DNA of 64,000 bases, taken from positions 224,001 to 288,000 of IMG/VR virus record IMGVR_UViG_3300012642_000011; one strand, given 5' to 3'. The notes below the pieces were generated by a model. That model worked only from the letters and a program-made list of their open reading frames with translations. It was not told the origin of the DNA and did no database searches. The stretch comes from a virus. Shown here piece by piece: positions 2,472 through 53,832 of this stretch. The translations under genes were made by a program, and so were the position numbers. Position 1 is the stretch's first letter. Every line of letters begins with the position of its first letter.

Positions 2472-2885
2472 TCAGTCGCCCTCGCCATCGGCGCTAGTCT
2501 TCACGTCAATGTCCGGCACGACGTTCTCCGGCTTGAAGATGACACGATGATGGTACTCGCTGACATCAGCAGAATCAATCTGCTCCGCAATATAAGTAAC
2601 GTTGTCAGACAGGCCAAGGAAATGCTTCTTGTACTCGTTGGGGCCAATCTTGCATGTTACCTCAAGCTGACCATCTGCATCGACAATAGAGCATCGACCC
2701 TCTACCGTAAGCATGTACTTATCCGTGATTCCATTGTAGAAAACCACACGGCGATTGATTTCAAAGTTGTCTGCAGCAGTCGAAAGATTGTCACTAGCCC
2801 TTGACGCGCCAGACTGACAGCCGGTAAGCCCAAGGACAAGAGCACATGCGGCACCAACAAAAGCAAGGTTCTTCTTCTTATTCAT
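2472..2885 (-). CDS. putative lipoprotein (signal peptide with lipobox LTGC), 137 aa
   Basis: N-term MNKKKNLAFVGAACALVLGLTGC; RBS GGAGAGTAATG. Confidence 0.55.
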   Translation of the reverse strand: MNKKKNLAFVGAACALVLGLTGCQSGASRASDNLSTAADNFEINRRVVFYNGITDKYMLTVEGRCSIVDADGQLEVTCKIGPNEYKKHFLGLSDNVTYIAEQIDSADVSEYHHRVIFKPENVVPDIDVKTSADGEGD

Positions 2886-5724: not shown

Positions 5725-7262
5725 TCACAATCCTAACAATTTTTACATAAGAGGATTTTCACGATAGTTCTTGATATAATCAAGCATGAGAAAAACACAC
5801 GCACCATTTAGACTTACGCATTATGAGATCCACGAAGGAAAAGCCACCAAAAAGGCAATCCTTCAAGAACTCACACGTATGAGCACATGGATGCGCGCAG
5901 AACAAGAACACTACTTCAAAAGCGACATGAACCGCATCATCCAAGAATTTCACAAAGGTGAAATCTTTACCGGTTCCCTTAACTCCCTCGGACGAACCCT
6001 CAACATACAACCATACAAGAACTACCCACACAATGCCTACAACATGAGCGAAATGCTCAGAACTTCCGTCCTCGCCCGCACCGCCGGACAAATACAAGAT
6101 GCCGCAATCTGCGAAATCATCAACAAAGACAATCAAAATGATACAAAAAAGATCATCCAAGACTTCAAGAATACTTATCCACACCTCAAAAAACCCACAG
6201 AAGCACACACCACAGCAGTAGCCAAAAGGCTCATCGAGAAGGGGGTCATTGCTGGAGAACCTGCTCCTGATGGGATCATTAACCTCTCCGCCACAGATAC
6301 TCACTATTGCAAAATCACAAGAGATAATCGCAATCTTTATTTAACTATTCGCTCCCTTGGAGAGTTAGGGCGAGTTGTGCTGAAGTTCAGAATCCCCAAA
6401 AGCGATAGGTTTAGCGGGGGTAAAATAACACGACCCAATATTGCTATCAAAAATGGGGAACCTGTTTTCTACTTCACTGTTCAACATGAGATTGAAACCT
6501 TACCCTACAACTCCCGCGTTCTCGGAGTAGATCTCGGCAAGATTGAAGAATATGTTGCTACCATTGTTGATGGTAACGAGATGAGCTATAGCGCTCCTTA
6601 TTATGCTCGAAAGAAAGTGAAAAGCATCACTGAACAGATGGATAAACTATGGAGACAGTATAATTCTAATAAATACAAGAAAGAAATGAATGAGAAGTTT
6701 GGTCATTTAAATCGCGCAAGCATTCATAAGACGGAATGCCAGAGAATCAGGTCAAGAATCACTCGGTTGAAGAATGAGAGAGCACTCACTATTGCTGCTC
6801 ATTTGGTAGAGGTTGCTGAGCGCAATGGCGTTAGCCTGATTTCTGTTGAGCAGTTATCATGGTTAGGGTCTAAAGGTGGCAAGTGGGAGCATTCTGCTAT
6901 TCAGAATGCTATGGAGAATCGTGGGAGACGTTCTGGCATCGGGGTGCGTAAAGTGAGTGCTAGGGGGACTTCCACTCATTGTTCTAAGTGTAATAAGGAG
7001 GCTCGTCAGTCTGGGCGTTTTGTGATTTGTGATTCTTGTGGTTTAAAGTTGAATCGTGATGTGTCTGCTTCTCGTAAGGTAGGCGTGAGGGCTATTCCTA
7101 ACGCTACTAAACAGTTTAACCATTATAAGCAGGTTTTATCGGTGATGACGCGATCATCGAGGCGGGTTACTATGGTTCCCTCTCCTTACCTCCAGAGTGT
7201 TACGATTGATTCTCAGGAATCTAAGAATTGTAACAACCTAGAGTAGCGTCCGCTGTTGAACC
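5712..7262 (+). mobile_element. IS200/IS605-family tnpB-only insertion (IS1341-like), AT-rich island; boundaries approximate
   Basis: Abrupt drop in GC at ~5712 and return at ~7247; contains TnpB ORF; no tnpA. Confidence 0.6.
5786..7246 (+). CDS. tnpB: TnpB-like RNA-guided endonuclease (RuvC-like D/E/D and CxxC..CxxC zinc ribbon), 486 aa
   Basis: N-term ...HAPFRLTHYE...; VLGVDLGK (RuvC-I), ISVEQL (RuvC-II), CSKCNKEARQSGRFVICDSCGLKLNRDVSASRKV (Zn ribbon + RuvC-III); AT-rich codon usage. Confidence 0.75.
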   Translation: MRKTHAPFRLTHYEIHEGKATKKAILQELTRMSTWMRAEQEHYFKSDMNRIIQEFHKGEIFTGSLNSLGRTLNIQPYKNYPHNAYNMSEMLRTSVLARTAGQIQDAAICEIINKDNQNDTKKIIQDFKNTYPHLKKPTEAHTTAVAKRLIEKGVIAGEPAPDGIINLSATDTHYCKITRDNRNLYLTIRSLGELGRVVLKFRIPKSDRFSGGKITRPNIAIKNGEPVFYFTVQHEIETLPYNSRVLGVDLGKIEEYVATIVDGNEMSYSAPYYARKKVKSITEQMDKLWRQYNSNKYKKEMNEKFGHLNRASIHKTECQRIRSRITRLKNERALTIAAHLVEVAERNGVSLISVEQLSWLGSKGGKWEHSAIQNAMENRGRRSGIGVRKVSARGTSTHCSKCNKEARQSGRFVICDSCGLKLNRDVSASRKVGVRAIPNATKQFNHYKQVLSVMTRSSRRVTMVPSPYLQSVTIDSQESKNCNNLE

Positions 7263-8777: not shown

Positions 8778-9016
8778 GTTCTCTCCTTGAGAGTGATGGT
8801 CTTGGGTTGTTCCCTTGACCTGATGAATCAATAGTACCACGAGGGACGCTCCATGTTCAAGTACCCTATGGAGTAATTTTTACGGCACGCTCGGCAGCAC
8901 AATCGCTGCGTCATTACCGTCTTGTAATGCTTGATTGACGAGATTGCGTTTATGGTGTAGGCTGGTTTCAGAACAACAGATCAGGGCGACTCGCCCCTCA
9001 CAGAAACGAGAACATC

Positions 9017-25769: not shown

Positions 25770-27150
25770 AGAAAACAGATGCTTAATTACATGCTTTTTG
25801 CTATACTATAATGTAGAAACGGGAAGAAGGTGAAAAATGATACTCACAGAGAAGCATGTGATTCGCAAAAATCACATGAACTTCAATGAGTGCGATCATC
25901 TCGCTTTCTTGAGCAAGAATCTTTACAATTCTACTCTTTTTGCCGTTCGCCAGCACTACTTCAGTAATGGTGAATACCTTAACTACAATAATGCAAATAA
26001 AATCTTCACCATAGAGGGACAAAGCGACTATGTTGCCTTGCCCAGAAAAGTCAGCAAACACACAATGATGCTGGTGGATCGTTCTTTCAAATCCTTTTTC
26101 AAACTCTTGGAGAAGAAAAGAAATGGAGAATATGACAAAACCGTAAGAATCCCAAAATACTTAGACAAAACAAAAGGTCGTCAAGTTGTTCATTATGAAA
26201 AAGGGGCATTGTCCTTCAAGAAGAAGGAGGGGTACCTCTATCTTTCACAGACTAACATATATTTGAAAACCAAGGTAACTTCGGATCAAATTCAATTTGC
26301 TAGAATCGTCCCTCGGGGTGAGCATTATGTGATTGAGGTGGGATATAGGGTTCCTCAGGTAGATAATCTTCACGATAATGGGCGATACCTGTCCCTTGAT
26401 CTTGGGGTGAATAATCTTGTCACAGCAGTGAGCAATGTGACAGCCCCGATACTCTTCAATGGGCGACCATTGAAGAGTATCAATCAGTTTTACAATAAGA
26501 GATTTGCATCCCTTCAGTCTAAACTCGGAGAGGAGGTGAAAAGCAGTAAGCAGATCAAGACTTTGCATCAGAGAAGATTGAACAAAATCAATGATTATCT
26601 CCACAAAGCCTCAAGAATGTTGGTGAATCACGCAGTTGAAAACTCTATCAATACTATAGTTATTGGATACAATAAAGAGTGGAAACAAGACATCAACATT
26701 GGGCGAAGAAACAATCAGAATTTTGCCTCTATTCCTTTTGCAAGGCTTATTGAGATGATTGAATACAAGGCTTCTCTTGTTGGTATCAACACCATCAGAC
26801 AGGAAGAGTCCTATACTTCCAAGTGTTCCTTTCTTGACGATGAGCAGGTGAGGAAAGCCAATTCCTATTCAGGAAGAAGGGTGAGTCGAGGTCTTTTCAA
26901 GACTGGGCAAGGACTTCGCGTTAATGCTGATGTGAATGGTGCCTTGAATATCTTAAGAAAAGCACTGAAAGTATCATGGAATGACCAGTTGTGGTCAGAC
27001 TGTGTAGCGGCGTGCAGTGTGCCGAAGCGGGTCAATATACCAGCTTGAAATGTTAATTCATGTTTATCATGTTTTCAACTAACTGTCCATCTTCTCGTTC
27101 ATCGTAAGTATTTTTTCTCCTTGGGAATAGTGGTTTCCGAGCGTGAAGCG
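25770..27150 (+). mobile_element. second IS200/IS605-family tnpB-only insertion, AT-rich; boundaries approximate
   Basis: GC drop at ~25770, return at ~27150; carries TnpB-like ORF antisense to flanking genes. Confidence 0.55.
25837..27048 (+). CDS. tnpB: TnpB-like protein, 403 aa, with degenerate zinc finger (only one Cys in place of CxxC..CxxC)
   Basis: LSLDLGVNN (RuvC-I), ESYTSKCSF..., NADVNGALNILRK (RuvC-III) typical of TnpB; second CxxC absent; RuvC-II Glu not obvious. Confidence 0.65.
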   Translation: MILTEKHVIRKNHMNFNECDHLAFLSKNLYNSTLFAVRQHYFSNGEYLNYNNANKIFTIEGQSDYVALPRKVSKHTMMLVDRSFKSFFKLLEKKRNGEYDKTVRIPKYLDKTKGRQVVHYEKGALSFKKKEGYLYLSQTNIYLKTKVTSDQIQFARIVPRGEHYVIEVGYRVPQVDNLHDNGRYLSLDLGVNNLVTAVSNVTAPILFNGRPLKSINQFYNKRFASLQSKLGEEVKSSKQIKTLHQRRLNKINDYLHKASRMLVNHAVENSINTIVIGYNKEWKQDINIGRRNNQNFASIPFARLIEMIEYKASLVGINTIRQEESYTSKCSFLDDEQVRKANSYSGRRVSRGLFKTGQGLRVNADVNGALNILRKALKVSWNDQLWSDCVAACSVPKRVNIPA

Positions 27151-31225: not shown

Positions 31226-31452
31226 CGATGAGCGCCCCGCTGGTGACAATGCCAGCGGGCGTTTTCTATATTCACATTTCGTGTCCCCACTCGTCCCACG
31301 GCGCACCCGCAACAGCAATGAGCCCAGATGACAACATGAGAAGGGGATCAGTGGAGAGGTCGCCACAAGGGGACACAATATGACTATTTTTGAGAACACC
31401 ACCGCCCCGCCTGAACTCCGAGAGGGAGGATAAGCGGGGCGGTTGGTATAGA

Positions 31453-31950
31453 TCAGGCCGTGGCGAGCGCCGGAGCGTGGGCGGAGTGGTAGGACTTCTT
31501 CACCGTCTCCGAGACGCGGCCACGGGTGCCCACGGTGAGGCCCTGTGCGATAGCCCACTCGCGGATGCGCGAGTTGGCAGAGAGGATCACCTTCACCGGA
31601 GCGGCCTCGCCGTGAGCCTCACGGTAAGCCTTGACCACGGCGTGCGGGACGCGACCACGCTGACCCGCCTTCAGCAGCCCCTCGGCCTCGGCCCACGCGC
31701 GGATGACGGGGGCGGACTCACCGGCGAGCAGGCCCTTGTCCTCGTTGTAGGCCGCGCCGACAACCTCCCCCTTGTCGAGCAGACGCTCCGCCTTGGACTC
31801 GCGGAAGTTCTTGTCCTTCAGGGCGGCGGCGGTCTTGTCGGTCAGGGCCACGGTGACGCGCTTGCCGTTCACGCGGATGGTGTGCTCGGTCGCGCCGAAG
31901 TGGCCGGTCAGGGCGTCGCGGACGGTGGAGGTGGTCTGGGTCTTCGTCAT
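31453..31950 (-). CDS. lsr2: Lsr2-like nucleoid-associated/xenogeneic-silencing protein with two tandem Lsr2-type C-terminal DNA-binding motifs
   Basis: VIRAWAEAEGLLKAGQRGRVPHAVVKAYREAHG and IREWAIAQGLTVGTRGRVSETVKKSYHSAH match the Lsr2 RGR DNA-binding motif. Confidence 0.65.
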   Translation of the reverse strand: MTKTQTTSTVRDALTGHFGATEHTIRVNGKRVTVALTDKTAAALKDKNFRESKAERLLDKGEVVGAAYNEDKGLLAGESAPVIRAWAEAEGLLKAGQRGRVPHAVVKAYREAHGEAAPVKVILSANSRIREWAIAQGLTVGTRGRVSETVKKSYHSAHAPALATA

Positions 31951-32243
31951 GATGTTCTCCTAAGAGTTGTGGAGCCGTGGTGACTCCGTTATGTGGGCTT
32001 TGGGTTTGTTTCCCTCTGCCGTGCTGATGGAATAAATCTAACACACCAGACGCTCCACGGTCAACCCGAAACGGCAGATTCGAGGAACTTTTTCTTGATG
32101 TGCAGGGACGCTCCACTATGGCGACAAGTGAGAGTAAGAATCAGTTGCACATTCAAGGGGACACAGGATTCGTATTTTATAGTGACGCTGGATACACAAA
32201 GCCGCCCCAGCGATCATCGTGACCACTGGGGCGGCGAGGTGGA

Positions 32244-32411
32244 TCACCAACCGGCGTTGATCGCCTGTCGCTTGTTGGCGGAGCGGGTGCCCTTGCGCGA
32301 CTTCACCGTGTGGCGCTGGGCGGCGGAGGAACGTCGCAGTTCCATCATCGCGTCGTAGCAGGCGCGGTTGCCGTTGTTGGCCGCGTTCTTGATCTTCTTG
32401 TTCTTCGCCAT
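32244..32411 (-). CDS. very basic small protein (~54 aa, MAKNKKIKNAANNGNRACYDAMMELRR...)
   Basis: Below ORF-track cutoff; conserved leader upstream; coordinates approximate. Confidence 0.4.
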   Translation of the reverse strand: MAKNKKIKNAANNGNRACYDAMMELRRSSAAQRHTVKSRKGTRSANKRQAINAGW

Positions 32412-34978: not shown

Positions 34979-35497
34979 ATGAGCACGAAGAAATCAAAGC
35001 GACTGGCGTACATTCTGCGTCACGATCCGGCATCTGCGAACACCACTGCCAGTGAGCAGGGTTGGGTCAGTGTGTCGGATATCATGCGTGCTCTCAACGT
35101 CACCATGTCTCAGTTGCAGGTCATCGTGAGCGAGGACAACAAGGGTCGCTACGAGTTCTCTGCAGACAATGAGATGATCAGAGCAACTCAGGGCCACTCC
35201 TACCCTGTCAACTTGGGATGGGAGAGCGTGCTTCCTCCTGCTATCCTCTACCACGGCACGGCTACGCGATTCGTTGAGTCCATCATGCGTGAGGGTCTGG
35301 TCAAGGGGTCGCGTCAGTGGGTCCACCTGTCTGCTGACACTGCTACAGCCTCGATGGTTGGTTCTCGTCATGGCGAGTTGGTCATCCTTGAGGTGGCAGC
35401 ATCTCGCATGGCAGCGGATGGTCGCTCCTTCTACCGCTCTTCCAACGGCGTGTGGATGGCTGAACATGTCCCTGTGGAGTACATCACCACCCTCTGA
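34979..35497 (+). CDS. kptA: RNA 2'-phosphotransferase Tpt1/KptA-like (NAD-dependent)
   Basis: KRLAYILRHDP...GWVSV and LYHGTATRFVESIMREGL...RQWVHLSAD match Tpt1 signature motifs. Confidence 0.7.
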   Translation: MSTKKSKRLAYILRHDPASANTTASEQGWVSVSDIMRALNVTMSQLQVIVSEDNKGRYEFSADNEMIRATQGHSYPVNLGWESVLPPAILYHGTATRFVESIMREGLVKGSRQWVHLSADTATASMVGSRHGELVILEVAASRMAADGRSFYRSSNGVWMAEHVPVEYITTL

Positions 35498-39711: not shown

Positions 39712-40182
39712 GATGCTCTCCTTGTGGAGTAGTGGTCTTGGGCTGTTCCCTCGACCTGATGGGATCATCCTATCACAGTGGATTGTCCAGTTCAAGTCAG
39801 GGGTCAGGGGTGGTTAGGGGACACAGGAATCATGTGATGCCCATGCAGCAAGATGCAGTGCTACCTCATGCTGATTGGCTCGTGTTCCATGTGAGCGCAT
39901 AGGTGGATGGTGCTACCGTAGAGTTTCCCTGTGTGGCATGGAGAGGAGGTCAAAAGGGTAGTACCATGACTTGCTTGCCGGTGATTGAAAAAGTCTGATG
40001 TATAGTCATTATTTTTACGATATTTATAGGGACACGTATTGTCTTCAGCGCCAATAAAAGAAACCTGATTGATTTGTACTTATCACTCAATCAGGTTTCT
40101 TTTGTTTTGTCTGTAGTTAAAAGAACAATGTGGCCCAGCCACCTGTACTATCAGGATTCACTGGGCCGCATTGCTATGTGGT

Positions 40183-40488
40183 TCATACGTTCACGATGGT
40201 GGCGTTCTTCATGTGCTGGTCGTAGGCGTCCACGATGATAGCGGCCAGCTGACCACGCTCGCTCACGTCGTAGCCGTTCTTGATGGCCCACGCTCGGATG
40301 GTGGCCGTGGTGGTCTTGGGGCGGTAGGAGGGGTTCTCGTCACGGAACTGGGCCACGAGATCCTTGGACAGACGACCACGGACGCTGACCTCGATGCCCT
40401 TGGACTTGGCCCACTGGCGGATGTCAGCGGCAGCCGAACGGCCAGCGATGAGGGTCTTGTCCTCGTTGTACTTGCGCTTGGTGGTCAT
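40183..40488 (-). CDS. lsr2: Lsr2-like DNA-binding protein (two Lsr2-type motifs), ~101 aa
   Basis: IRQWAKSKGIEVSVRGRLSKDLVAQF and IRAWAIKNGYDVSERGQLAAIIVDAY; conserved leader. Confidence 0.55.
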   Translation of the reverse strand: MTTKRKYNEDKTLIAGRSAAADIRQWAKSKGIEVSVRGRLSKDLVAQFRDENPSYRPKTTTATIRAWAIKNGYDVSERGQLAAIIVDAYDQHMKNATIVNV

Positions 40489-40705
40489 GGTCTCTCCTAG
40501 GAGTAGTGGTTGGTGTTGAGATTGGCCCCTGTGGCCTCGCTGTTTGCTCTCAACCTGATGAATCAATAGTAGCACGGGGGACGCTCCATGTGCAACATGT
40601 GCAGCACGAATAATCTCGGGATAGTCGCAGCCCTCTATTGGATCACGTAAACTCGTGATAGTATGCTCACACATACCTATGGGGACACATAACTTGCTGT
40701 AAATA

Positions 40706-40762: not shown

Positions 40763-41488
40763 TCAGGTCGCACAATCGTTTCCGGTCAACTTTGCATAAT
40801 CACACACTTGTGCGTTGCCAGACACTTGTGCATTTCCGGCCACAAATGCACAATCGTACACTTGTGCGTTACCGGACACTTGTGCGCTGTCTGTTACTTC
40901 TGCATCGTCAGATACCTGTGTATTACCAGTCACTTGAGCGTTGTCATAAATAAATGCTTCACCGGATACTCGTGCTTTACCAGACACCCGTGCGTTACCT
41001 GCCACGCGCGAGTTGCCATAAATTCGCGTGTTACCAGACACTCGCGCATTATCGTACACCTCTGCGTTGCCATATACTCGTGCGTTGTCATGCACAAGAG
41101 CGTCATCAAACACGTAAGCGTCGCCGGACACACAAGCGCTACCGTACACCGAAGCATTGCCAAATACCCAAGCGTTCTCGAACACTCGCGCGTTGCCGTA
41201 AACCCGCGAGTCCTCAGTGACGTATATGTTACCAAGCAACTCTGCGTTATCATACGCCTGAGCGTTCTCGTACACCCGAGCGTTATCAGTCACGTGCGCA
41301 TTGCCGTACACCTTCGCCTCATCATTGACCCATGCATTATCTGAGAGATTGTCCATGCTCTCCACATAACCGCCCAGATCCCCAGATTTCACCTCATGAT
41401 CGGGCAGGTCGCGTGTGGCTCGAATACGGTGGAGCGTTCGACCGTTGTAGTGAATCGTTTCATCTGTCAGTTCGTAATTCTTATTCAT
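40763..41488 (-). CDS. hexapeptide-repeat (LbH-like) paralog, 241 aa
   Basis: N-term MNKNYELTDETIHYNGRTLHRIRATRDLP..., ~30 xVxGNAxV repeats; co-operonic with 41503..42258 (14-nt gap). Confidence 0.65.
   Translation of the reverse strand: MNKNYELTDETIHYNGRTLHRIRATRDLPDHEVKSGDLGGYVESMDNLSDNAWVNDEAKVYGNAHVTDNARVYENAQAYDNAELLGNIYVTEDSRVYGNARVFENAWVFGNASVYGSACVSGDAYVFDDALVHDNARVYGNAEVYDNARVSGNTRIYGNSRVAGNARVSGKARVSGEAFIYDNAQVTGNTQVSDDAEVTDSAQVSGNAQVYDCAFVAGNAQVSGNAQVCDYAKLTGNDCAT
40800..41340 (-). repeat. tandem 18-bp coding repeats (gcg tta ccg gac act cgc-type), also in 41760-42110, 43060-43600, 43860-44210, 44600-44900, 45300-45930 and 60-330
   Basis: Periodicity produces the many short overlapping out-of-frame ORFs in the six-frame track. 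Confidence 0.8.
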
Positions 41489-41502: not shown

Positions 41503-42258
41503 TTATTTAGTCCAGCGTGCGACACGGGCGCGGCACTGATCAATGACGGATTGGTACTCGGGACGTGCGTCACGAATGATTTCAGGGTCAGTGGTTTCAA
41601 CCCATGAATCCGAGTCGCAGAGGATCTGGTGATCATCAAGAGTGCCTGACTTGCAACCGATATGGAGAACATGATCATCCGTGGTGCGGTGCAGGGTCCA
41701 ATTGAATTGCCGATTGGTGCAGAGTGTGCCGATCATAATATGCTTTTCTTCAGCCACTCGCGCGTACCCAAACACGTGTGCGTTACCAAAAACTCGCGCG
41801 TACCCAAACACCCGTGCGTTACCACACACCCGTGCCCAATTGTACACTTGTGCGTCATCGGACACTTGTGCGTTGTCTGTTACTTCTGCATTCTCAAATA
41901 TGTGTGCCTTACCAGCCACTTGAGCTTTGTCATAAATAAATGCGTCATCGGACACTAGTGCGTCCCCGAACACTTGTGCGTCCCCGAACACTTGTGCGTT
42001 ACCGGACACGCGTGCGTTGCCATATACACGCGCGTCATCGTACACCAAAGCGTTCCCTGACACTCGTGCGTCATCGTACACCATCGCCTCATCAGCGACC
42101 CATGCGCTATCGGAGAGGTTGTCCAGATGTTCCACGAAGCCGCCCAGATCGCCGGGCTTTACAGCGTGGTAGGGTAGTTCTCGTGTTGCACGAATGCGGT
42201 GGAGCGTTCGACCGTCGTAGTGAATCGTTTCATCTGTCAGTTCGAAATGCTTATTCAT
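41503..42258 (-). CDS. hexapeptide-repeat paralog with extra ~80-aa Cys-containing C-terminal domain, 251 aa
   Basis: Same N-term domain; C-term AEEKHIMIGTLCTNRQFNW... unique. Confidence 0.65.
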   Translation of the reverse strand: MNKHFELTDETIHYDGRTLHRIRATRELPYHAVKPGDLGGFVEHLDNLSDSAWVADEAMVYDDARVSGNALVYDDARVYGNARVSGNAQVFGDAQVFGDALVSDDAFIYDKAQVAGKAHIFENAEVTDNAQVSDDAQVYNWARVCGNARVFGYARVFGNAHVFGYARVAEEKHIMIGTLCTNRQFNWTLHRTTDDHVLHIGCKSGTLDDHQILCDSDSWVETTDPEIIRDARPEYQSVIDQCRARVARWTK

Positions 42259-43022: not shown

Positions 43023-43724
43023 TTACCACCTGCAATCAAACCAATTAATTTCATCAGTAACTATTGCATTACCGGACACCCGCGAGTTACCAATCACCCG
43101 CGCATATTCGCAAACCCTCGAACAACCAGTCACTATTGCATTACCTGACACCAATGCTCTGTCTGTCACTTGTGCATTACCATTCACCATTGCTCTTTCA
43201 GAGACCAGTGAATTACCAAATACCTGTGCGTCACCCCTCACTATCGCGTCATCGATAACCCTTGTTTTGCCGTGTACACGAGCATTGCCAGACACATGCG
43301 CATGACCGAACACCCACGCTTCATCGAATACTCGTGCAGAGATATATACATATGCGTAACCGAACACCCGTGCGTCACCATAGACCCACGCTTCACCGGA
43401 CACTGATGAATTACCACTCACCAATGCGTTGCCGAAAACCCGCGCACTATTGTACACATGTGCAGTACCAGTCACCAATGCATTACCGGACACCATTGCC
43501 TTACCATTCACTTTTGCGCCCCCTGATACCCGCGCGTCCCCGTACACCATAGCCTCGCCACCGACCCATGCGATATCTGAAAGGTTATCCAAACGCTCCA
43601 CAAAACCACCCAGATCACCTGACTTTACGCGGTGCTCGGGCAAGTCTTGCGTGGCGCAGATACGATGGAGCGTGTGTCCTTCATAGCGGATCGTCTCATT
43701 TGTTAGTTCAAAGTGTTTAGTCAT
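43023..43724 (-). CDS. hexapeptide-repeat paralog, 233 aa
   Basis: N-term MTKHFELTNETIRYEGHTLHRICATQDLP... Confidence 0.65.
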   Translation of the reverse strand: MTKHFELTNETIRYEGHTLHRICATQDLPEHRVKSGDLGGFVERLDNLSDIAWVGGEAMVYGDARVSGGAKVNGKAMVSGNALVTGTAHVYNSARVFGNALVSGNSSVSGEAWVYGDARVFGYAYVYISARVFDEAWVFGHAHVSGNARVHGKTRVIDDAIVRGDAQVFGNSLVSERAMVNGNAQVTDRALVSGNAIVTGCSRVCEYARVIGNSRVSGNAIVTDEINWFDCRW

Positions 43725-45268: not shown

Positions 45269-46084
45269 TCAGGTCGCTCGTTCGTTACCTAACACTCGTG
45301 CGTAACCATACACCAGCGCGTTGTCGGTCACCCATGCATCACCCTGCACCTGAGCGTTGTCTTCCACTCGCGCATAGGTGAGCACGCATGCGTTACCAAA
45401 CACTCGCGCGTTACCGGACACTCGCGCATAGTCAGTCACTTGCGCGTTATCGTACACCATTGCACCACCGAACACCTGAGCGTTACCGGACACCTGTGCC
45501 TCACCGAACACTTGGGCGTTACGAGATACCCACGCGTTACCGGACACCACTGCATCGCCGTACACTTGTGCGTCTTCATCAATATATGCACCACCGAACA
45601 CCTGAGCGTTACCGTACACTCGGGCGCAATCGGACACTCGTGCGTTATCGTACACTCGCGCGTCGCAAAGCACTAGCGCGTTACCCGTCACTCGCGCGTT
45701 ACCGGACACTCGCGCATAGTCAGTCACTTGCGCGTTATCGTACACCATTGCACCACCGAACACCTGAGCGTTACCGGACACCTGTGCCTCACCGAACACC
45801 CAAGCGTAACCGAACACTCGCGCGTCGTCGCCAATATATGCCTTACCGAACACCCATGCATCATTGGATACCCGTGCGTTACCAGATACCAGCGCGTTAC
45901 CAAACACATACGCCTCATCAGCAACCCATGCATCATCTGAAAGGTTGTCCAGACGCTCCACGTAACCACCCAGATCCCCAGCCTTCACATCATGATCGGG
46001 CAGATCTCGTGTCGCACGGATACGATAGAGCGTTCGACCGTAGCGGATGATGGTATCGTTTGTCAGTTCGAAGTGCTTGCTCAT
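45269..46084 (-). CDS. hexapeptide-repeat paralog, 271 aa, with internal ~300-bp duplication
   Basis: Blocks 45400-45540 and 45690-45830 nearly identical at DNA level. Confidence 0.65.
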   Translation of the reverse strand: MSKHFELTNDTIIRYGRTLYRIRATRDLPDHDVKAGDLGGYVERLDNLSDDAWVADEAYVFGNALVSGNARVSNDAWVFGKAYIGDDARVFGYAWVFGEAQVSGNAQVFGGAMVYDNAQVTDYARVSGNARVTGNALVLCDARVYDNARVSDCARVYGNAQVFGGAYIDEDAQVYGDAVVSGNAWVSRNAQVFGEAQVSGNAQVFGGAMVYDNAQVTDYARVSGNARVFGNACVLTYARVEDNAQVQGDAWVTDNALVYGYARVLGNERAT

Positions 46085-49722: not shown

Positions 49723-49992
49723 GATGTTCTCCTATGAGTAGTGATGTTGCTTCTTGCAACATTTCGTATGTACAGAAATAATCTTACATGAGTAATTGGA
49801 ACATGTCAACCTACACCATGATCAGAACAGATGCAAGGAGGTAACGAGTTCGTCGTTTCGGTCTAGCACGGGGACGCTCCACGATCTTCGGAAATCATGT
49901 TGCACATGAAGCGTCCCCGTGGTAGAGTTGAGTCATCAACAAGGGAGAGCAACACAGAGCAATCCCGCACTACTCTCATCAAGGAGAACATC

Positions 49993-50809: not shown

Positions 50810-50995
50810 GTACTCCTTGTCGTGGGGTAGTATTCATTTCCTATCACCATCAGGATACATGATGGAGAGGTGAAAGGCAACCTGCACGAGTTCTTATTTG
50901 TAGAGATGAAGTGGGGACACAGAATTATAACGTGAGGAAAAGCAAACGACCCGCTCTCATCCTCTCGGGAATCAAGCGGGCCGTTTGCTTTTGGA

Positions 50996-51337
50996 TCAGG
51001 CGTGAGCGGCCTTGTAGGCGTCGATCACGTCCTTGGGGAAGCGGCCACGGGTGCCGACCTTGTAGCCGTTCGCCTTGGCCCACTCGCGGACCTTGGCGGC
51101 GTCCTGACCCACCTTCAGGTCGGGGTTGACCTTGTAGGAGCGGACGACGCGGCGGACGGAGTTCTCGATGATCTTGTCGGACTTCTCGATCAGGAACGTC
51201 TCGTCCTTGATCTTCTCCACGGACTTGGAGTTCAGGGGAACCTCGTACACACCCTTGTTGGGGATGCGCACCTGAACCAGCTTGGCACCCATCTGCTTGG
51301 TGATCGCGTCCTGCAGGAAAGCCTGGGTCTTCGTCAT
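50996..51337 (-). CDS. lsr2: Lsr2-like DNA-binding protein, ~113 aa
   Basis: C-term [31 protein letters not shown] matches the Lsr2 C-terminal DNA-binding domain; conserved leader. Confidence 0.65.
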
Positions 51338-51580
51338 GATTTTCTCCTTGATGAGAGTATTTCGGGATTGCTCTGTGTTGCTCTCCCTTGCTGATGAATC
51401 AAATGTACCACAGGGGACGCTCCATGTGCAACATGATTTCCGAAGATCGTGGAACTTTTCTACCCGTGAGAACAAAAGGCAGCATGAAGACCACACACAG
51501 ACAACCCACAGGGGACACAAGATGAGAGCAACAAGAAAGGGTGTGGACGTTTGTATGCGGCCACACCCCTCTTTGATCAA

Positions 51581-52674: not shown

Positions 52675-53832
52675 TCAGCGACGGTTCAAGTACGCATTGA
52701 AGGCAAGAGACAGCGGCTTGATGAGAGGACGTGACCACTCGCCGTGAGTCTGCACCACGTCAGCGCCCACAGCCGTCTTGAACATGGTCAGGCCAGAAGT
52801 CTTGCCGTTCGCCTTCAATGATCCCGGCACGCCGATCAGGTCATACCACTTGCACCCATACTTCACGGCGTCAGAGATCATCTCCCACTGAACAGCGCGG
52901 GAAGCGTACATCTTACGATGCTCAGCACTGGAACCGCCGTACAGGTACCACAGAAAATCGCCCTGACGGATCGTGAGCGCTGCAGCAAGCGGAATGTCCT
53001 CGTGGTAAGCGACAATGACCTCAGCGTGGGCGATCTCCGAGCGATCAAAAACTTCAAGGAGACGCTCAAAGTAGGAGACAGGTCGGGGAGTGAACTGCTC
53101 ACGCTCTGCCGTCATCACATAGAGTGCGTGGAAATCATGCACGAGGGACGCTCCACGCTTGATGATCAGACCCTGCTTCAGAGACTTGCGCGTTTCGGAT
53201 CGAGAGGTCTGGTTCATGCGCATGAGGACGCTCTCGGCATCTGACTCAATCGGAATGCGTGCTTGAAACATGGGCTGACCATTACCGAAGTCCTCTTCGA
53301 TAGAAGGCTCCTTGAATCCAGCGCGAACCATGTCTGATTCAATGGAGATCTGGCGATAATCCACATCTGCCTGAAGTTCCATCAGGTGCTCGTACTGGTC
53401 GTCCTTGAGTGCCTTGCGTACCACGTCAGCATCCCAACGTCGGACAGTCTCAGGAAGACCCAGACGGAGTTCGAACGCACCAGTCTTCTTCACGTAGGAA
53501 GTCAGGGCAGGGAGCACATCAGAGATATGCACATCTGCGTTTACTACAGGACCTTCACTGATGTAGGCCAGAGACAGGTTGCCGATCACAGGGATCTTGT
53601 TCACGACAGGAAGCGGGCGGTAGAGGATCAGGGACGCTCCAACCAGAACGTCCTCATGGTAGATGCCTACGGACTCGTTGCGCCACTCGCTCTTGACCTC
53701 ACCCCAGTGTGGGTTCTGCAGGAAGGATGCAGCAGGACGGGTAGACAGATATGCCTCATGCTGATCTGCGGTGATAGCGCGGATCGTGTAGTCCTTGTTT
53801 GCCTTGATTGGCTTGGTTGCGGTAGCGGTCAT
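52675..53832 (-). CDS. FemAB-family (Fem/FemX-like) peptidoglycan aminoacyltransferase homolog, 385 aa
   Basis: Size and C-terminal WYLYGGSS...R...WEMISDAVKYGCKWYDLIG motif typical of FemABX/GNAT-fold transferases. Confidence 0.5.
   Translation of the reverse strand: MTATATKPIKANKDYTIRAITADQHEAYLSTRPAASFLQNPHWGEVKSEWRNESVGIYHEDVLVGASLILYRPLPVVNKIPVIGNLSLAYISEGPVVNADVHISDVLPALTSYVKKTGAFELRLGLPETVRRWDADVVRKALKDDQYEHLMELQADVDYRQISIESDMVRAGFKEPSIEEDFGNGQPMFQARIPIESDAESVLMRMNQTSRSETRKSLKQGLIIKRGASLVHDFHALYVMTAEREQFTPRPVSYFERLLEVFDRSEIAHAEVIVAYHEDIPLAAALTIRQGDFLWYLYGGSSAEHRKMYASRAVQWEMISDAVKYGCKWYDLIGVPGSLKANGKTSGLTMFKTAVGADVVQTHGEWSRPLIKPLSLAFNAYLNRR

Follow-up and report, generated by a model that had tools for sequence, protein, structure and literature searches.

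The question raised by the DNA analyzed here is whether one phage-like element encodes several Lsr2-family proteins and, if so, whether these are equivalent. In Actinobacteria, silencers of the Lsr2 type govern virulence genes, prophages, and the gene clusters for antibiotics, and phages presumably manipulate this silencing with Lsr2 copies of their own. The stretch under study, called the window from here on, comprises 64,000 nt of a virus record (IMGVR_UViG_3300012642_000011, positions 224,001 to 288,000); together with about 10 kb of flank on each side, about 84 kb of DNA could be read. An earlier reading of the window, the original prediction, had proposed three divergent Lsr2-like genes, two of them with tandem DNA-binding domains (DBDs). 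These genes are named A (31453..31950), B (40183..40488), and C (50996..51337), and the parts of their products are abbreviated as N (N-terminal domain) and D (DBD). We hold, with moderate confidence, that A, B, and C encode nucleoid-associated proteins of the Lsr2 family that form a diversified trio, assembled from two modules, on a very large phage-like actinobacterial element. The observed part of this reading is the domain content, the collinearity, the kept contact residues, and the intact, separately promoted genes.

Domain content of the three genes

A search with the Lsr2 profile, which the original prediction had named as the check that could refute it, returned significant matches for A, B, and C. 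All three exceeded the curated cut-off (26.9 bits) of the Pfam family PF23359 (Lsr2_DNA-bd), with A at 67.9 bits (E = 4.6e-19), B at 89.6 bits (E = 8e-26), and C at 60.1 bits (E = 1.2e-16). A and B were matched along two stretches each and C along one. A hidden Markov model (HMM) of the domain, built in-house from the copies identified here, agreed that A and B carry the domain in tandem, as had been proposed, and the C-terminal peptide quoted in the original prediction was found to be the exact C terminus of the C product. When all six reading frames were scanned with this HMM, exactly five domain copies were found, all in A, B, and C, and no further copy was detected in the rest of the window or in the adjoining 9 kb or so on either side. 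The five DBDs are 28-49% identical to each other, which confirms that the copies are divergent and marks them as old paralogues rather than recent duplicates. A phmmer search of PDB sequences recovered the solved Lsr2 DBDs 2KNG, 6QKP, and 6QKQ for A, B, and C and nothing else credible, with E = 4e-9 for C against 6QKQ. The C domain is 57% identical to what we take to be the Mycobacterium tuberculosis Lsr2 domain. NCBIfam gave no match for A, B, or C.

The Arg of the IRxW/VRxW helix is kept in all five DBDs and the RGR loop in four, the exception being the second DBD of B, which has RGQ. The IRxW Arg corresponds to R86 of M. smegmatis Lsr2, the loss of which lowers DNA binding and yields a dominant-negative protein (PMC2367712). 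Variants of the AT-hook-like motif are tolerated in the family, for example RGI in CgpS (PMC5137423).

Structure models of A and B were built with AlphaFold2 (AF2). Since word-indexed homologue searches with A, B, and C returned almost only their own clusters, the alignments behind these models were shallow and the N-domain was modelled poorly. A helix-loop-helix fold was predicted for all four modelled DBDs, which are joined by low-confidence linkers. In the A model, with a mean predicted local distance difference test (pLDDT) score of 56.6, the N part consists of a helix (5-18), a beta-hairpin (22-35), and further helices (38-60), all at low pLDDT. It is followed by a low-confidence linker and two helix-loop-helix modules with pLDDT of about 70-80, the first DBD having helices at 79-90 and 103-116 (pLDDT 70-79). 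The B model (mean pLDDT 67.4) shows disorder over residues 1-18, then two helix-loop-helix modules and nothing more. Foldseek searches with the A model gave 6QKP (probability 0.95) and 2KNG (root-mean-square deviation 1.1 A over 32 columns) as the best PDB matches, with weak E-values for so tiny a domain.

The three proteins are not equivalent, which qualifies the original prediction. By BLASTP, A(1-113) and C(1-112) align collinearly with 36% identity, as do B(7-89) and A(68-154) with 35%. PHROG 1223 ("nucleoid associated Lsr2-like") was matched almost end to end by A (residues 4-115 on profile positions 3-120 of 123, E = 5e-20) and by C (residues 4-113 on positions 5-119 of 123, E = 2e-13), and B matched its DBD part only, twice. 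The architectures are N+D for C, N+D+D for A, and D+D for B. Neither BLASTP collinearity nor the AF2 model revealed an N-domain in B, and a search of the window and both flanks for an ORF (open reading frame) consisting of an N-domain only, which would be an H-NST-like paralogue, found none.

The N-domain of A and C is probably a strongly diverged Lsr2 dimerization domain. Alignment of the A/C N-domain with a canonical N-domain profile by hhalign gave 79% probability and E = 1.6e-5, the match covering 45 columns from residue 1 onward, and BLASTP with the N-halves alone gave E = 0.007. When the canonical profile was run against all six-frame ORFs, residues 1-46 of A ranked first (E = 0.0022). 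C aligns in register over its full length with Redno2 gp56 (35%) and with Streptomyces Lsr2 proteins that bear the Pfam dimerization family PF11774 (32%).

All three genes are intact and maintained. They lie on the minus strand, which the original prediction had not stated. A is a complete ORF starting with ATG, and the mechanical ORFs of B and C are longer (40183..40674 and 50996..51580) than the genes, which begin at internal ATG codons. These short starts are judged correct because AGGAGA lies 6-8 nt before each of the two ATGs, the upstream extensions cross a conserved promoter motif, and metagenome gene callers independently assign 101 amino acids (aa) to B and 113 aa to C. The products are small and basic (isoelectric point, pI, 9.9-10.0), and the G+C content at third codon positions (GC3) is 0.90 for A, 0.85 for B, and 0.92 for C, which places all three near the top of about 115 candidate genes. 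Reading frames are intact in 7-17 natural variants per gene (15 for B), with the key residues kept. One metagenomic relative of A, P0185, has 120 aa, is 77% identical, and carries a single hybrid DBD in which the start of domain 1 runs on into the tail of domain 2, apparently through recombination of the tandem repeats. Repeat number is thus dynamic within the A lineage.

A second qualification is that tandem DBDs are not unique to this element and recur in many database proteins. An exhaustive HMMER search of 1.84 billion representative proteins with B as the query gave 147 matches outside its own cluster, of which 3 had no DBD, 21 had one, 95 two, 25 three, 2 four, and 1 six; these counts are not frequencies, as a tandem query favors tandem matches. 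Fewer than 45 residues precede the first DBD in 48 multi-domain matches, each representing a cluster, and these have a DBD-only layout. Metagenomic examples are P0041 with two DBDs only, P0042 with PF11774 and two DBDs, and P0046 with PF11774 and three. In RefSeq, the name "Lsr2 family protein" covers WP_078875325.1 of Streptomyces sp. NRRL F-5053 (N-domain and three DBDs), WP_335743606.1 of Rhodococcus oxybenzonivorans (six DBDs), and a R. koreensis protein with five. No cultured-phage record covering at least 80% of B was found at the sensitivity of tblastn, so that the collection yielded no tandem DBD-only form. As the original prediction had stated, phages encode Lsr2 copies, and these are often multiple: 76 of 354 Lsr2-encoding actinophages have more than one copy and a Ku-Lsr2 fusion was reported, in a survey that does not mention tandem domains (PMC8612146). 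Full-text literature searches found no study of multi-DBD Lsr2 proteins. The architecture is recurrent and already deposited under generic names, and the trio is a variant within a well-known family and not a new kind of system.

The domain is also found outside Lsr2 proteins. The sole PADLOC match was to the C-terminal Lsr2-like tail of a type II methyltransferase model (PDLC03328), and the Lsr2 DBD also matches the Ku-like PHROG 4873 and the WhiB PHROG 472. These matches suggest that the Lsr2 DBD is a portable module fused to unrelated proteins.

Expression signals and the surrounding element

Each Lsr2-like gene is its own unit, preceded by a promoter-leader cassette with a ribosome-binding site and followed by a strong terminator hairpin. 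The cassette consists of a -35-like hexamer (TTGACA, TTGCAC, or TTGACC), a conserved spacer TGGAGCGTCCCC-n-GTG, and a TG-extended TAnnnT -10, followed by a TCATCAG-type leader, AGGAG, and ATG, with the ATG 86-106 nt past GGAGCGTC. The 14-mer CATGGAGCGTCCCC has 23 copies at no more than 2 mismatches compared to 0.7 expected, nearly all of them on the minus strand. The common cassette and the high GC3 suggest that A, B, and C are one co-regulated class that is probably well expressed. Used as a probe, the promoter motif gave 82 single matches in IMG/VR, which is the chance level, and no match in two JGI metagenome scans.

The cassette, about 95 nt long, belongs to about 26 genes of the window, with a conserved leader in two subtypes and the start codon at a nearly fixed 75-86 nt. 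Minus-strand cassettes lie, for example, at 8852, 13852, 20529, 33533, 36016, 37550, 42860, 49121, and 54267, and one plus-strand cassette lies at 49908. Repeated in this way, they recall the early promoters of large phages, which are likewise repeated.

A second repeated motif, TGTGTCCCC, is GGGGACACAGAAT read on the plus strand. It has 61 exact copies in the window, 58 of them on the minus strand, and as a 13-mer gave 52 matches compared to 1.8 expected. The copies are intergenic, past terminators and 40-110 nt ahead of promoters (for example 31369..31381, 40681..40693, 50913..50925, and 51511..51523). Their orientation is unchanged inside the clusters of plus-strand genes (at 9.6-12 kb and at 54.4-60.6 kb), so that the motif is oriented with the genome rather than with the genes. 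Possible roles are a polar signal at the DNA level or a protein-binding site; judged by its G+C-rich core, GGGGACACAGAAT is no obvious Lsr2 target.

The sequences of A, B, and C were found in metagenome assemblies only, on contigs of up to 437 kb that carry all three genes together. One such contig, ERZ27289831 k141_11150, is 332 kb long, and window position x corresponds to its position 155744 minus x. Some of the source samples may be human skin metagenomes. Identity with the CGP3 prophage of C. glutamicum, suggested by GC content and the presence of Lsr2, was rejected, as the three proteins have no NCBI record. A megablast search of a cultured-phage collection with 24 kb and an IMG/VR search with A returned no relative, and among one genome per GTDB species the best match was 32% identical, from Streptomyces. 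Thus, no close relative in reference genomes or phage collections was found in those searches. The 84 kb hold about 100 small genes, mostly without a family, and no tRNA or housekeeping gene; Rfam gave no match in the window. All the Lsr2-domain relatives found come from Actinomycetota or their phages. Because of these relatives and the phage-flavored genes, the element is best described as a large phage-like element of an uncultured actinobacterium, either a jumbo phage or a giant prophage or island.

Some neighboring genes could be recognized (Table 1). The RDF-family protein has 938 phage records as relatives, and the phage homologues of the RNA 2'-phosphotransferase are mostly in jumbo phages of 260-300 kb. 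An RNA ligase gene lies about 4 kb past the right end of the window, and the two enzymes are a possible RNA-repair pair. Five YdcK beta-solenoid paralogues (phrog_5070 and phrog_7964, E down to 1e-99) have relatives in phages of many phyla. Phage_gp86 was recognized twice, along with a GmrSD_C protein. Directly upstream of A, as a separate unit, lies a very Lys/Arg-rich ORF of 55 aa (GC3 0.89) that gene callers report on all related contigs; its product could be another small nucleic-acid-binding protein.

The original prediction had also pointed to two AT-rich insertion sequence (IS) islands as natural Lsr2 targets. The islands are present as two TnpB genes (IS605/OrfB, Cas12f-like), which contain most of the lowest-GC DNA of the window, but their AT-richness is modest (GC 0.39-0.44 compared to a mean of 0.536). 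Their low GC suggests recent insertion. No TnpA was recognized beside either gene. The nearest phage-borne relatives of the second TnpB are in Staphylococcus epidermidis phages (50% identity), which is uninformative for an actinobacterial host. It is possible that the TnpB islands are Lsr2 targets.

Table 1. Positions of the three genes, their domains and signals, and recognizable neighbors (window coordinates unless another record is named; i-E, independent E-value of the in-house domain HMM)
Feature	Position	Strand	Description and basis
Gene A	31453..31950	-	165-aa Lsr2-like protein, N+D+D, pI 9.99; complete ATG ORF
A N-domain, residues 1-60	31771..31950	-	Probable divergent Lsr2 dimerization domain; AF2, hhalign, canonical N-domain profile
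A DBD 1, residues ~77-116	31603..31722	-	IRAW...QRGRV; i-E 1.9e-13
A DBD 2, residues ~122-162	31465..31587	-	IREW...TRGRV; i-E 2.3e-15; best Pfam stretch 125-157; 2KNG and 6QKP alignments
A promoter-like site	32035..32064	-	Cassette variant: TTGACC, 18 nt, TG-TAGATT; consensus scan 9/12 with TG; aligns with B and C cassettes
A terminator hairpin	31395..31442	-	RNA fold -36.4 kcal/mol, z -6.9
Gene B	40183..40488	-	101 aa, two Lsr2 DBDs only, without N-domain, pI 9.92
B DBD 1, residues ~16-51	40336..40443	-	IRQW...VRGRL; best Pfam stretch 16-49; i-E 9.6e-16
B DBD 2, residues ~58-95	40204..40317	-	IRAW...ERGQL; 6QKP and 2KNG align to 59-90; i-E 4e-16
B promoter cassette	40566..40595	-	TTGCAC-ATGGAGCGTCCCCCGTGC-TACTAT; sequence, cassette table
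B terminator hairpin	40120..40176	-	RNA fold -30.6 kcal/mol, z -4.5; terminator-like site
Gene C	50996..51337	-	113-aa phage-type Lsr2-like protein, N+D, pI 9.91
C DBD, residues ~76-113	50999..51112	-	VREW...TRGRF; Pfam stretch 77-111
C promoter cassette	51402..51431	-	TTGCAC-ATGGAGCGTCCCCTGTGG-TACATT; sequence, cassette table
C terminator hairpin	50937..50992	-	RNA fold -35.8 kcal/mol, z -6.3
55-aa ORF	32244..32411	-	
RDF-family protein	2472..2885	-	phrog_478, Pfam Phage_VG64
TnpB (first)	5786..7246	+	
TnpB (second)	25837..27048	+	
RNA 2'-phosphotransferase	34979..35497	+	Tpt1/KptA, phrog_5470
YdcK paralogue	40763..41488	-	
YdcK paralogue	41503..42258	-	
YdcK paralogue	43023..43724	-	
YdcK paralogue	45269..46084	-	
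YdcK paralogue (fifth)	L103:10876-11628		Spans window start
FemAB-family protein	52675..53832	-	Peptidoglycan-bridge transferase-like
RNA ligase	L105:3322-4326		phrog_968

Proposed function and its alternatives

If A, B, and C act as a diversified Lsr2-family set, each DBD would bind AT-rich DNA by placing its RGR loop in the minor groove, in the manner of M. tuberculosis Lsr2. A and C would self-associate through the N-domain and bridge or coat AT-rich DNA, either the element's or the host's, to repress or organize it. C would be an ordinary phage-type Lsr2-like protein, and A would have twice the DNA-binding valency per subunit, with four DBDs per dimer. B would bind the same type of DNA bivalently as a single chain that joins no filament, and could either serve as a minimal bridge or compete with filament-forming silencers for a site and so exclude them from it. 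The shared promoters suggest that the three proteins would be made together, probably abundantly, in one temporal class. Conceivably, the trio represents the investment in silencing control that the original prediction had seen in it.

Several results weigh against this proposal. PF11774 matched neither the A nor the C N-half at a limit as lax as E <= 10, and four of four controls passed it (Redno2 gp56, Streptomyces Lsr2, P0042, and P0046). A PDB profile search with the A/C N-domain recovered no Lsr2 N-domain, and Foldseek with the A model found no solved Lsr2 N-domain, the AF2 model being of low confidence there. The RGQ in place of RGR in the second DBD of B is found in all 15 B variants. 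No capsid, terminase, or other structural phage gene was found in the 84 kb and, therefore, the term "phage" is not proven. Strongly AT-rich tracts are absent from the element, the lowest GC over 200 bp being about 0.39 and mostly inside the two TnpB genes. Since its AT-rich DNA is so modest, targets on the element itself are not evident.

The function of Lsr2 in vivo needs both DNA binding and oligomerization (PMC2367712). B lacks the N-domain and, therefore, cannot be a classical oligomerizing silencer. This could mean that the main job of the trio is anti-silencing, the defeat of a host Lsr2 that would otherwise silence an incoming element of lower GC. B would compete for AT-rich sites without forming a filament, and A and C would poison or replace host filaments by means of an incompatible N-domain. 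The strong divergence of the A/C N-domain from canonical Lsr2 is consistent with this, and it has been argued that incompatible oligomerization domains of foreign silencers disturb silencing and that phages could exploit the effect (PMC5137423). Shared promoters of early type and high GC3 would also fit host-takeover genes. However, this presumes a host whose GC content makes the element a silencing target. Also, the known natural and engineered antagonists, among them H-NST and an N-terminal CgpS fragment, are built the other way round from B, with the oligomerization domain but not the DBD, and no paralogue with only an N-domain is present. Overall, we consider anti-silencing as the main job to be unlikely.

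A more elaborate proposal is that B, as a single chain with tandem DBDs and no oligomerization domain, represents an unstudied class of phage anti-silencer, a mirror image of H-NST that sits bivalently on AT-rich sites and blocks the nucleation of host Lsr2 filaments. A and C would form a filament specific to the element and unable to mix with that of the host. Together, the three co-regulated genes would equip a giant actinobacterial phage with self-contained means of both silencing and counter-silencing. We regard this as speculative and quite unlikely.

Another possible explanation is that A, B, and C are general DNA-organizing or host-nucleoid-remodeling proteins of a jumbo phage and not sequence-selective silencers. 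The Lsr2 domain would then be a portable tether that serves compaction, protects phage DNA, or helps to shut off the host chromosome. Two findings speak against this: C is homologous to phage Lsr2-like proteins and collinear with them over its full length, and the contact residues typical of AT-rich minor-groove binding are retained. The explanation draws on the fusion of the same domain to the Ku-like PHROG 4873, the WhiB PHROG 472, and a methyltransferase C terminus (PMC8612146), on the existence of proteins with up to six DBD copies, and on the position of the genes amid about 100 small orphans with repeated strong promoters, a region that resembles one for host takeover. We find it improbable. 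That B is merely what decay has left of an A-like gene, without its 5' part or a function of its own, would fit its collinearity with the C-terminal two thirds of A and its RGQ, but is very hard to reconcile with its own promoter cassette, ribosome-binding site, and terminator, its GC3 of 0.85, its intact frame in 15 natural variants, the long persistence implied by only 35% identity to A, and the DBD-only layout of 48 unrelated representative clusters.

To our knowledge, all the proteins used in mechanistic work on Lsr2 have a single oligomerization domain and a single DBD. As a diversified Lsr2-family set, A, B, and C provide an N+D, N+D+D, and D+D series that shares a genome and a promoter type and in which valency is separated from oligomerization. 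Such a natural series allows a direct test of which property gives bridging, silencing, or counter-silencing, and the D+D form is a candidate compact tool to relieve Lsr2 silencing. Nothing is overturned by this finding alone, as multi-domain Lsr2 proteins were already deposited under generic names.

Comparison with known systems

The closest characterized proteins are the Lsr2 proteins of M. tuberculosis and M. smegmatis (Rv3597c; DBD structures 2KNG, 6QKP, and 6QKQ). They resemble A, B, and C in the DBD, the IRxW Arg, the RGR loop, and a pI near 10, and their two-module plan of N-domain and DBD is common to A and C. In contrast, the N-domain of A and C fails PF11774, an Arg/Gly-rich linker is absent from all three proteins, and the DBD is doubled within the chain in both A and B, of which B lacks the N-domain. 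The mycobacterial gene is a chromosomal housekeeping locus, whereas A, B, and C are on a phage-like element.

Among phage proteins, the "Lsr2-like DNA bridging protein" of cluster J mycobacteriophages (Redno2 gp56) is collinear with C, which is 34.5% identical to it over 99% of its length. Redno2 gp56 passes PF11774, whereas A and C fail. Several lsr2 genes per phage genome were already known (PMC8612146). CgpS of the C. glutamicum CGP3 prophage is encoded by a mobile element, as are A, B, and C, a likeness drawn from its description (PMC5137423). The multi-domain "Lsr2 family" proteins in databases likewise have the DBD repeated within a chain, some alongside an N-domain and others lacking it, but are only 21-46% identical to B, form independent lineages, and carry a generic annotation. 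Finally, H-NST and other truncated H-NS antagonists are like B in being truncated silencer paralogues on horizontally acquired DNA that possibly interfere with silencing (PMC5137423). H-NST keeps the oligomerization domain without a DBD, so that B is its mirror image in an unrelated protein family.

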